From Escherichia coli (GTDB lineage Bacteria > Pseudomonadota > Gammaproteobacteria > Enterobacterales > Enterobacteriaceae): 64,000 nucleotides of DNA. Location: NCBI RefSeq assembly GCF_030013205.1, contig NZ_CP122648.1. One strand, written 5' to 3'. Below are positions 9,001 through 12,000 of this stretch, piece by piece. Positions within the stretch are counted from its first letter, which is position 1; each line of letters opens with the position of its first letter. The position numbers were made by a program.

Positions 9001-12000
9001 CCCAGTCACCGGAGCGACCATACAGCCCTTCCATCATCATTTCAGCCAGAATGTACGGCACGTTGTCGGCCTGAAGAACGCGTTTATGAGTCAGCGGATT
9101 CACACCACCCGCCGCCAGCGTCGCGCCAAGCGTTGCCAGTTCAACAGTATTGATGAGCGTGGAGCACTGACGGGTGTACACGTCACAGGCTTCCATTGCA
9201 TCACAATAGAGATATCCGGCGGAGTACAGCAGCCAGGCAATGGCCCGGTTATGGAAGTTGGTTGTTTGTTCCGACTGGTTGACTTCGTCAGAGAGCGCTA
9301 CCTGCTCACCAGCCAGTTGTTGTTGGATATGTAAAATTCGCTGCCAGCGTTGTTCGGCATTTTCAGCGTTAATCAGGCTGGTGGTGGCAATAGCGCCAGC
9401 ATTTACCAGTGGCGACAGCGGTTTGCCGCCATGCAACTCTAAGGCGATAACTGAGTTAAAGGGCAATCCGGTCGGGTCAGCGCCAACTTTGTCCTGTACC
9501 GCCTGCGGGCCGACATCTTCTAACGCAAGGGCTAACGTACAGACTTTCGAGATGGATTCCAGCGCAAAGCGGTAATCACTATCACCCGCGCGATATATGT
9601 TGCCATCGCAGGTCACAATAGCCACTGCTGCCAGTTGACCAGGTACATTCGCCAGAAAGGGAATGTAGTCGGCATTTTGTCCGCCGTTAAGTGAGTGAAA
9701 TTGGGTGTAAGCCTGATCCACTGCCTGCTGTAATTTGTTTGCATCTAACATCTTTTGTTAACTCCTTTTTATAGATGCGGGAGGTAATTCCTCACCCCGG
9801 TGCCGATTTTCAGGCATCCTGATTTAACTTAGCACCCGCAACTTAACTACAGGAAAACAAAGAGATAAATGTCTAATCCTGATGCAAATCGAGCCGATTT
9901 TTTAATCTTTACGGACTTTTACCCGCCTGGTTTATTAATTTCTTGACCTTCCCCTTGCTGGAAGGTTTAACCTTTATCACAGCCAGTCAAAACTGTCTTA
10001 AAAGGAGTGTTTTATGTCACAAACTATCGACCTGACCCTGGACGGCCTGTCCTGCGGTCACTGCGTTAAACGCGTGAAAGAAAGTCTCGAACAGCGCCCG
10101 GATGTTGAGCAGGCGGATGTGTCTGTCACTGAAGCGCACGTTACCGGGACTGCCAGTGCAGAACAGCTGATCGAAACCATCAAACAAGCGGGTTATGACG
10201 CATCTGTAAGCCACCCAAAGGCTAAACCGCTGGCGGAGTCATCAATCCCGTCGGAAGCACTGACAGCGGTTTCTGAGGCGCTTCCGGCAGCGACCGCCGA
10301 TGACGATGACAGCCAGCAGTTGCTGCTGAGCGGCATGAGCTGCGCCAGCTGTGTCACCCGCGTACAAAATGCGCTGCAAAGCGTACCGGGCGTCACTCAG
10401 GCACGGGTAAACCTGGCGGAGCGTACTGCGCTGGTGATGGGCAGTGCCTCCCCACAAGATTTAGTGCAGGCGGTGGAAAAAGCGGGCTACGGCGCGGAAG
10501 CGATTGAAGATGACGCTAAACGCCGCGAGCGCCAGCAAGAAACCGCCGTCGCTACGATGAAGCGCTTCCGCTGGCAGGCGATTGTCGCACTGGCGGTGGG
10601 TATACCGGTGATGGTCTGGGGGATGATCGGCGATAACATGATGGTCACCGCCGACAACCGCAGCCTGTGGTTGGTTATCGGCCTGATAACCCTGGCGGTA
10701 ATGGTTTTCGCCGGCGGGCATTTTTACCGCAGCGCATGGAAAAGCCTGCTGAACGGTGCAGCGACGATGGATACGCTGGTGGCGCTGGGTACTGGCGTGG
10801 CGTGGCTCTATTCGATGAGCGTCAACCTGTGGCCGCAGTGGTTCCCGATGGAAGCGCGACATCTTTATTACGAAGCCAGCGCGATGATTATCGGTCTGAT
10901 CAATCTCGGTCATATGCTGGAAGCGCGCGCACGTCAGCGTTCTTCAAAGGCGCTGGAGAAATTACTCGATTTAACCCCACCGACGGCGCGCCTGGTCACC
11001 GACGAAGGTGAAAAAAACGTGCCGCTGGCAGATGTTCAGCCAGGTATGTTACTGCGCCTGACGACCGGCGACCGTGTGCCGGTAGATGGTGAGATTACCC
11101 AGGGCGAAGCGTGGCTGGATGAAGCGATGCTGACGGGCGAACCTATCCCGCAGCAAAAAGGCGAAGGCGATAGCGTCCATGCCGGGACAGTGGTACAGGA
11201 CGGCAGTGTGCTGTTTCGTGCCAGTGCGGTCGGCAGCCATACTACGCTGTCACGGATCATTCGCATGGTGCGACAGGCCCAGAGCAGCAAGCCAGAAATA
11301 GGTCAACTGGCGGATAAAATCTCCGCCGTGTTTGTGCCGGTAGTGGTAGTCATTGCGCTGATCAGTGCGGCAATCTGGTATTTCTTTGGTCCGGCACCGC
11401 AGATTGTCTATACCCTGGTGATTGCCACCACGGTGCTGATTATCGCCTGTCCGTGTGCGCTGGGACTGGCGACGCCGATGTCGATTATTTCGGGCGTCGG
11501 GCGGGCGGCTGAGTTTGGTGTGCTGGTGCGGGACGCCGACGCGCTGCAACGCGCCAGTACGCTCGACACCGTGGTGTTCGATAAAACCGGGACGCTGACC
11601 GAAGGGAAGCCGCAGGTTGTCGCAGTAAAAACATTTGCTGATGTTGATGAAGCGCAAGCATTGCGTCTGGCGGCGGCGCTGGAGCAAGGTTCCAGCCACC
11701 CGCTGGCACGGGCGATCCTCGATAAAGCAGGTGATATGCAGCTACCGCAGGTCAACGGTTTCCGCACATTGCGCGGGCTGGGTGTGAGCGGTGAAGCTGA
11801 AGGTCATGCGGTATTGCTGGGCAATCAGGCGCTGTTAAATGACCAGCAAGTTGATACTAAAACGATTGAGGCAGATATTTCAGCTCAGGCATCGCAAGGG
11901 GCAACGCCTGTGCTGCTGGCGGTTGACGGGAAAGCGGTGGCCTTGCTGGCAGTACGCGATCCGTTGCGTAGTGATAGCGTGGCGGCGCTGCAACGTCTGC

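Follow-up and report, generated by a model that had tools for sequence, protein, structure and literature searches.

The −1 frameshifting cassette of copA is intact in an Escherichia coli genome and conserved across Enterobacteriaceae and Erwiniaceae

Efficient ribosomal frameshifting on Escherichia coli copA was recognized from ribosome-profiling data, was characterised by Meydan et al. (2017, Mol Cell 65:207) and received independent confirmation from Drees et al. (2017, Mol Microbiol 106:635) (PMC9548414). In K-12, frameshifting on this gene yields a 70-aa product, compared with the 834-aa product of the zero frame (PMC5009743). In single-molecule assays, ribosomes stall at the copA pseudoknot, which induces −1 programmed ribosomal frameshifting (PRF) (PMC6182138), and the nascent CopA chain has been reported as a further stimulator in a review that also describes copA frameshifting (PMC7558416). 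Together with dnaX and prfB, copA is grouped among the well-characterised chromosomal frameshift cases (PMC10861913). When we looked in the literature for CCCAAAG in connection with copA, the matches were primer lists only.

Among these cases, dnaX invites the closest comparison. Like copA, it is a chromosomal gene outside mobile elements, and its heptamer ends in A_AAG, which is decoded by tRNA-Lys (PMC10861913). In both genes the −1 stop follows one codon after the heptamer, and a functional truncated product is made (for dnaX, the tau/gamma subunits). The signals themselves are built differently: dnaX has the heptamer A_AAA_AAG, an internal Shine-Dalgarno-like AGGGAG upstream and a stem-loop downstream, whereas copA has C_CCA_AAG and a pseudoknot. 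Frameshifting in dnaX is stimulated by the upstream Shine-Dalgarno-like element and the downstream stem-loop. In the DNA analysed here, none of GGAG, GAGG or AGGA occurs in the 25 nt upstream of the copA heptamer (10189-10213), and copA resembles dnaX in outcome, not in architecture.

Two further systems frame the product and the signal. The free-standing CopZ proteins of Enterococcus hirae and Bacillus subtilis are, like CopA(Z), HMA folds of ~70 aa with a CXXC Cu(I) site that serve CopA (1cpz, 6ff2; PMC7558416), but they are encoded by a gene of their own, with no recoding within copA. A separate copZ gene is the usual arrangement in bacteria (PMC10187127), and the copA cassette stands in for the separate copZ gene of most bacteria. 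The human ortholog of copA is ATP7B, for which −1 PRF was proposed together with copA in the same 2017 paper. Later work traced the ATP7B case to a reporter artefact, with neither site nor structure conserved (PMC9548414), whereas both site and structure are strongly conserved in the enterobacterial copA cassette.

The locus studied here lies in a stretch of 64,000 nucleotides from an E. coli genome (NCBI RefSeq assembly GCF_030013205.1, contig NZ_CP122648.1), referred to below as the window; feature coordinates are collected in Table 1. The zero-frame product of copA is a Cu(I)-exporting P1B-type ATPase with two N-terminal HMA domains: Pfam assigns two HMA domains, the second beginning at residue 105, followed by E1-E2_ATPase and Hydrolase. 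Upstream of the gene lies a promoter string that consists of TTGACC, a 19-bp spacer containing the dyad CCTTCC-N7-GGAAGG, and TAACCT, and which we take to be the CueR-dependent PcopA, as established since Outten et al. (2000). A generic sigma-70 scan did not pick up this promoter, because the scan permits spacers of 16-18 nt only. The gene order glsA-ybaT / copA / ybaP is the same as in E. coli, and by both the promoter/operator string and this synteny the host gene of the cassette is the CueR-regulated copA. As side observations on the gene setting, ybaQ is absent in the window and the neighbourhood past ybaT differs.

Within copA, codons 67 (CAC, 10212-10214), 68 (CCA, 10215-10217) and 69 (AAG, 10218-10220) contain the slippery heptamer, which is made up of the last base of codon 67 and the whole of codons 68-69. 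The zero frame continues with GCT (codon 70) and AAA (codon 71); translated in the −1 frame, the site reads CCC AAA GGC TAA. The original prediction had placed C_CCA_AAG at codons 67-69 and a −1 frame TAA two codons further on, and sequence and translation locate the heptamer at precisely 10214-10220 and, after GGC, the stop at 10223-10225. The predicted range of 10214-10225 is therefore exactly the heptamer plus GGC-TAA, with every coordinate correct. That the site falls just after the first metal-binding domain is borne out by Pfam, in which the HMA domain spans residues 8-62, so that the heptamer sits in the linker between metal-binding domains 1 and 2 (MBD1 and MBD2), directly after MBD1. 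The deduced CopA(Z) is 70 aa long (MSQTI...VSHPKG) and ends in H67-P68-K69-G70. Its HMA domain is complete (PF00403 profile positions 3-62 of 62, E = 8.4e-14) and retains the metal site GxxCxxC as G-L-S-C14-G-H-C17. Matches of the CopA(Z) sequence in the PDB include free-standing CopZ-type chaperones and metal-binding domains of ATPases.

Table 1. Features of the copA locus, and the dnaX heptamer, in positions of the window.
Feature	Position	Strand	Basis or remark
copA promoter and CueR operator	9943..9973	+	exact string match; same as K-12
copA	10014..12518	+	834-aa zero-frame ORF; copA in E. coli annotations
CopA(Z) coding region, join(10014..10220, 10220..10225)	10014..10225	+	69 zero-frame codons, then GGC and TAA
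Metal-binding domain 1 (MBD1) coding region	10035..10199	+	PF00403 HMA, residues 8-62, CXXC C14/C17
Slippery heptamer C_CCA_AAG	10214..10220	+	X_XXY_YYZ register relative to copA ATG at 10014
Heptamer-pseudoknot spacer, 6 nt, with −1 stop inside	10221..10226	+	sequence; conserved S1 begins at 10227
−1 frame stop TAA	10223..10225	+	translation; one codon (GGC) after heptamer
S1 5' arm (predicted), CCGCUG, G (mismatch), CGG	10227..10236	+	RNAalifold; 100% paired, 12 species
S2 5' arm (predicted), GUCGGAAGC	10250..10258	+	RNAalifold consensus; 95% of cells paired
S1 3' arm (predicted), CUG, A (mismatch), CAGCGG	10260..10269	+	RNAalifold; 100% paired, 12 species
S2 3' arm (predicted), GCUUCCGGC	10280..10288	+	RNAalifold consensus; 95% of cells paired
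dnaX frameshift heptamer A_AAA_AAG	27544..27538	−	643-aa ORF; sequence and annotation of a closely related genome

Compared with K-12 MG1655, the window shows no difference at all from 10126 to 10579, and the heptamer, spacer, −1 stop, both arms of each pseudoknot stem and the promoter are all identical. The differences of this strain from K-12 lie outside the cassette: an additional A sits in the 5' UTR immediately 5' of the Shine-Dalgarno sequence, MBD1 has I38V and two synonymous changes, and 11 more amino-acid differences follow later in the pump. CopA(Z) differs from its K-12 counterpart by I38V alone, residues 39-69 of CopA being identical; at position 38, this strain has V where K-12 has I, and other genera show V, I, L or Q. 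In the RefSeq record of K-12, copA is joined by a further CDS in two pieces at equivalent coordinates, likewise 212 nt in span (YP_009518752.1, 'soluble Cu(+) chaperone'). The claims that the frameshift site is intact and that it matches the published CopA/CopA(Z) mechanism accordingly stand: the frameshift region is K-12 base for base, and both the literature and RefSeq agree with it. As a separate observation, the difference-free stretch of 454 nt lies in a gene that, taken whole, differs from K-12 at 89 of 2505 nt.

Nearly all E. coli carry the same cassette. A 601-nt segment around the site matched annotated copA in 5422 of 5426 complete E. coli genomes, and in 5347 of these 5422 (~98.6%) the 81-nt stretch that holds the cassette (10210-10290) was identical in every base. 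In a search with 106 nt (10195-10300), the most divergent genome sampled carried its differences solely 3' of S2.

On both strands of the window, CCCAAAG occurs 3 times, against 8.4 ± 2.7 expected from shuffles, and the bare copA heptamer is not rarer than chance. The 38 long non-overlapping ORFs of the window (~16,800 codons) contain 22 in-frame X_XXY_YYZ heptamers; of these, two, in copA and dnaX, are of the type N_NNA_AAG and are followed after one codon by a −1 stop. It is frame, position and conservation, not the heptamer by itself, that mark out the copA site, and it is these features taken together that go beyond chance. We note in passing that so crude an ORF screen singles out two E. 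coli chromosomal frameshift sites known from the literature (PMC10861913).

The original prediction had called for folding of the region downstream of the heptamer in search of a stimulatory pseudoknot, and a candidate H-type pseudoknot is present there, intact and supported by evolutionary comparison, beginning 6 nt 3' of the heptamer. Its two stems, S1 and S2, were first spotted by inspection and were derived from the sequence, not from a published drawing. The 6-bp core of S1 pairs CCGCUG (10227-10232) with CAGCGG (10264-10269), with a duplex energy of -9.2 kcal/mol, and the duplex energy of S2 is -14.4 kcal/mol; the predicted loops measure 13, 1 and 10 nt. On the 12-species alignment described below, RNAalifold returned S2 as the consensus and, once the 3' arm of S2 was withheld, S1, to which it added three pairs (10234-10236 with 10260-10262) across a 1x1 mismatch. 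In a simple scan for interleaved helix pairs starting 3-9 nt after the heptamer, the best pair summed to -27.1 kcal/mol, a value attained by 2 of 300 mononucleotide shuffles and 1 of 300 codon-order shuffles. The nested minimum-free-energy (MFE) fold of the 80 nt 3' of the heptamer was not significantly stabler than shuffles (z = -0.99), a result that is uninformative because a nested fold cannot represent a pseudoknot. A scan of 9800-10600 against Rfam at a permissive E-value returned chance-level matches only (all E >= 3.5).

Two other pairings were considered and set aside. The outer stem of the MFE fold (~10231-10236 with 10294-10298) was rejected in favour of S1, as it is not conserved in other genera. 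An A-U extension of S1 towards the heptamer, of two or three pairs (10224-10226 with 10270-10272), was not counted: its pairs are unpaired in 8-9 of the 12 species, and they would make the spacer too short.

For the comparison across genera, we aligned 12 copA 5' regions from Enterobacteriaceae and Erwiniaceae, namely this E. coli and 11 further genomes (Citrobacter, two Enterobacter, Salmonella, Klebsiella, Cronobacter, Erwinia, Pantoea, Mixta, Buttiauxella and one more enterobacterial genome). A search of contigs with full-length CopA gave, among the matches listed, mostly distant phyla and three Enterobacterales; the other genera were reached through protein matches and look-ups of contigs by exact sequence. 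A Plesiomonas locus was left out on account of its frameshift-ridden assembly.

All 12 sequences have C_CCA_AAG without variation and in an unchanged register, and in all 12 the −1 stop follows exactly one codon after the heptamer. The stop is TAA in E. coli, Citrobacter, Salmonella, Enterobacter, Klebsiella and Cronobacter, and TGA in Buttiauxella, Mixta, Erwinia, Pantoea and the one more enterobacterial genome. The zero-frame residues that overlie it vary among K-A-K, K-A-N, K-S-D, K-A-E, K-P-D and K-P-E. Retention of an in-register heptamer and of a −1 stop, be it TAA or TGA, while the zero-frame residues change is specifically what frameshifting needs, and this bears on an alternative source of the short protein. 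The MBD1 protein could arise mainly from a copA transcript cut short, by early termination or by processing, close to where MBD1 ends, with the RNA structure serving the formation or stability of that transcript. Drees et al. (2017) name such a route in their title, and an RNA structure under strong conservation could in principle act in processing or stability. That title, however, includes frameshifting as well, which, as far as the title goes, makes the two routes complementary and not exclusive. Moreover, a terminator scan found no intrinsic-terminator-like site on the + strand from 10014 to 10700, and a truncated mRNA with no in-frame stop would give no defined 70-aa product. We therefore consider truncation as the main source very unlikely, and frameshifting the far better account of the stop and its register.

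The predicted pairing is retained across the same genera. Standard pairs occupy 97.7% of the pair cells in the 12-species alignment, and a shift of the 3' partners along the alignment by 1-3 columns lowers pairing to 19-46%, while the sequence of loop 3 varies freely. In S1, compensatory double changes turn C-G into A-U in Erwinia and C-G into U-A in Pantoea, and there is a wobble in addition. As it consists of two compensatory pairs, found in one species each, this covariation is thin, and what the alignment lends to the predicted pseudoknot is mostly conservation.

Codon choice shows a further layer of constraint. Across eight Enterobacteriaceae, the fraction of same-residue pairs that also use the identical codon is 0.96 for codons 67-92, compared with 0.52 for codons 2-62, and it reaches 1.00 at codons 67-71 and 76-83. 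This pattern marks strong purifying selection at the RNA level on top of protein constraint at the copA cassette. Conservation of the linker peptide, or of codon usage, might be thought to account for the nucleotide conservation with the heptamer and −1 stop as incidental features, and the inter-domain linker residues are indeed conserved at the protein level in the aligned Enterobacteriaceae. Protein constraint, however, leaves unexplained why synonymous change is nearly absent here (0.96) when the equally conserved MBD1 stands at 0.52, why S1 shows compensatory base changes, and why the −1 stop is kept over varying zero-frame residues; the K-12 experiments contradict such a reading directly (PMC9548414, PMC5009743, PMC7558416, PMC6182138). 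We regard it as improbable in the extreme.

Further afield, Photorhabdus copA, as aligned, is without the linker and without the frameshift site, and the ~55 more distant CopA homologs sampled had no equivalent cassette at the MBD1 boundary, one curiosity from Propionigenium aside. In this member of the Fusobacteriota, a copA-like gene carries A_AAA_AAA, then one codon and TGA, at the end of an HMA domain, a layout identical to that of the copA site. One could propose that the cassette, meaning the heptamer, the −1 stop and both stems, is at least as old as the common ancestor of Enterobacteriaceae and Erwiniaceae, with the stop and S1 changing since then and with the cassette absent from Photorhabdus, and that the Propionigenium site could be a convergent invention. 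We give this proposal as a whole a low probability, and part of it may already be published.

We are highly confident that the site, observed here with its register, its stop, the domain boundary, identity with K-12, a conserved and covarying pseudoknot and purifying selection at the RNA level, is the −1 PRF cassette of enterobacterial copA; no sequence feature argues against the frameshift explanation. That ribosomes slip, how efficiently they do so, what the nascent chain contributes and that the product acts as a chaperone are points for which we draw on the K-12 literature by analogy. On this basis, a ribosome translating copA would meet C_CCA_AAG with its P site holding tRNA-Pro paired to CCA and its A site holding tRNA-Lys paired to AAG, while the pseudoknot, starting 6 nt downstream, would stand at the mRNA entrance and resist unwinding. 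Some ribosomes would slip one base back and re-pair on CCC and AAA in a tandem −1 slippage, then read GGC as Gly70 and stop at TAA. The 70-residue CopA(Z) so released would comprise the first HMA domain and presumably act as a CopZ-like cytosolic Cu(I) chaperone, and ribosomes that do not slip would proceed to the full 834-aa pump. A single CueR-controlled mRNA would in this way give pump and chaperone in a set ratio.

The copA cassette is already known, and what the window holds is a real but ordinary, unchanged K-12 cassette; the finding changes no current knowledge. In practice, what matters is its annotation. In the PGAP-annotated genome of strain 7/2, copA appears as the 834-aa protein only, yet the dnaX frameshifting element is marked, and Rfam 15 has neither a copA family nor a model of the copA pseudoknot. 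Since annotation of this kind omits copA recoding, the 70-aa chaperone can be missing from the proteomes of such records; the cross-genus copA alignment could seed a covariance model. For the organism, the strain keeps its copA recoding signal as do ~98.6% of complete E. coli genomes, and because that signal is intact, the strain should, by inference from K-12, be able to make its only CopZ-type copper chaperone.

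Window copA differs from its K-12 (MG1655) counterpart at 89 of 2,505 nt (3.6%), and none of these differences falls within the 454 nt of the gene at 10126-10579. This K-12-identical stretch much exceeds in length the frameshift cassette, i.e., the heptamer, the -1 stop and the downstream pseudoknot, and could have arisen from a recombination mosaic, not just from selection. Across 601 nt around the copA frameshift site, E. coli strain 7/2 (NZ_CP023820.1), the closest genome found, is 100% identical to the window. However, strain 7/2 carries IS1397, an IS3 family element with a programmed frameshift of its own, between gsk and ybaL, whereas the window has no IS1397 there (19465-19593); the window therefore represents a strain other than 7/2.

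The surroundings of copA also depart from the K-12 arrangement. K-12 has the order copA, ybaQ, ybaP, whereas ybaQ is missing between copA and ybaP in the window; a blastn comparison of the intergenic segment at its position with the 723 nt that correspond to it in K-12 gives no match, and K-12 homology resumes at 12875. On the other side, ybaT is followed by cueR in K-12, yet the gene after ybaT in strain 7/2 encodes a TolC-family outer-membrane protein and is annotated as frameshifted, with siiEA, which codes for a giant adhesin, beyond it. At the TolC position, the window holds a 451-aa ORF (Table).

Coordinates of the features discussed in this part (window positions unless an accession is given)
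Feature	Coordinates	Strand	Location or basis
451-aa ORF at TolC position	5831..7186	-	window region 1-7200 (-)
Intergenic segment at ybaQ position	12519-12874 (356 nt)		blastn vs K-12
dnaX -1 frameshift site A_AAA_AAG	27538-27544	-	inside ORF 26896..28827 (-), codons 429-430 of 643-aa ORF
A_AAA_AAA site, Propionigenium maris copA-like gene	NZ_BSDY01000033.1, 1680-1692 of locus L064		

In the PGAP record of strain 7/2, the sole copA CDS is the 834-aa one and the CopA(Z) product is not annotated; the record does list the frameshifting element of dnaX among its sequence features, whereas the copA equivalent is unmarked. Rfam 15 holds no copA pseudoknot family. Public assemblies of Klebsiella (LR134224.1; pieces of 295, 413 and further residues), Erwinia rhapontici, Enterobacter sp. 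EA-1 and a further enterobacterial genome call copA as several genes. The breaks fall elsewhere than the frameshift site, and the splitting probably stems from assembly indels or pseudogenes.

A layout the same as that of E. coli copA is seen in P. maris, where an 875-aa copA-like ORF encodes an N-terminal Cys-rich segment followed by an HMA domain; A_AAA_AAA lies in register where an HMA domain ends, and the -1 frame continues ATC TGA. Because the genome has 40% GC and the run is 7 A, the site could be a chance occurrence or one of transcriptional slippage.

The A_AAA_AAG within window dnaX is the classic -1 frameshift site of that gene, flanked by AGGGAG upstream and a GC-rich stem-loop downstream, with GAG TGA following in the -1 frame. 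It lies ~17 kb from the copA site, and thus both well-characterised E. coli chromosomal genes with -1 programmed frameshifting are within the window.
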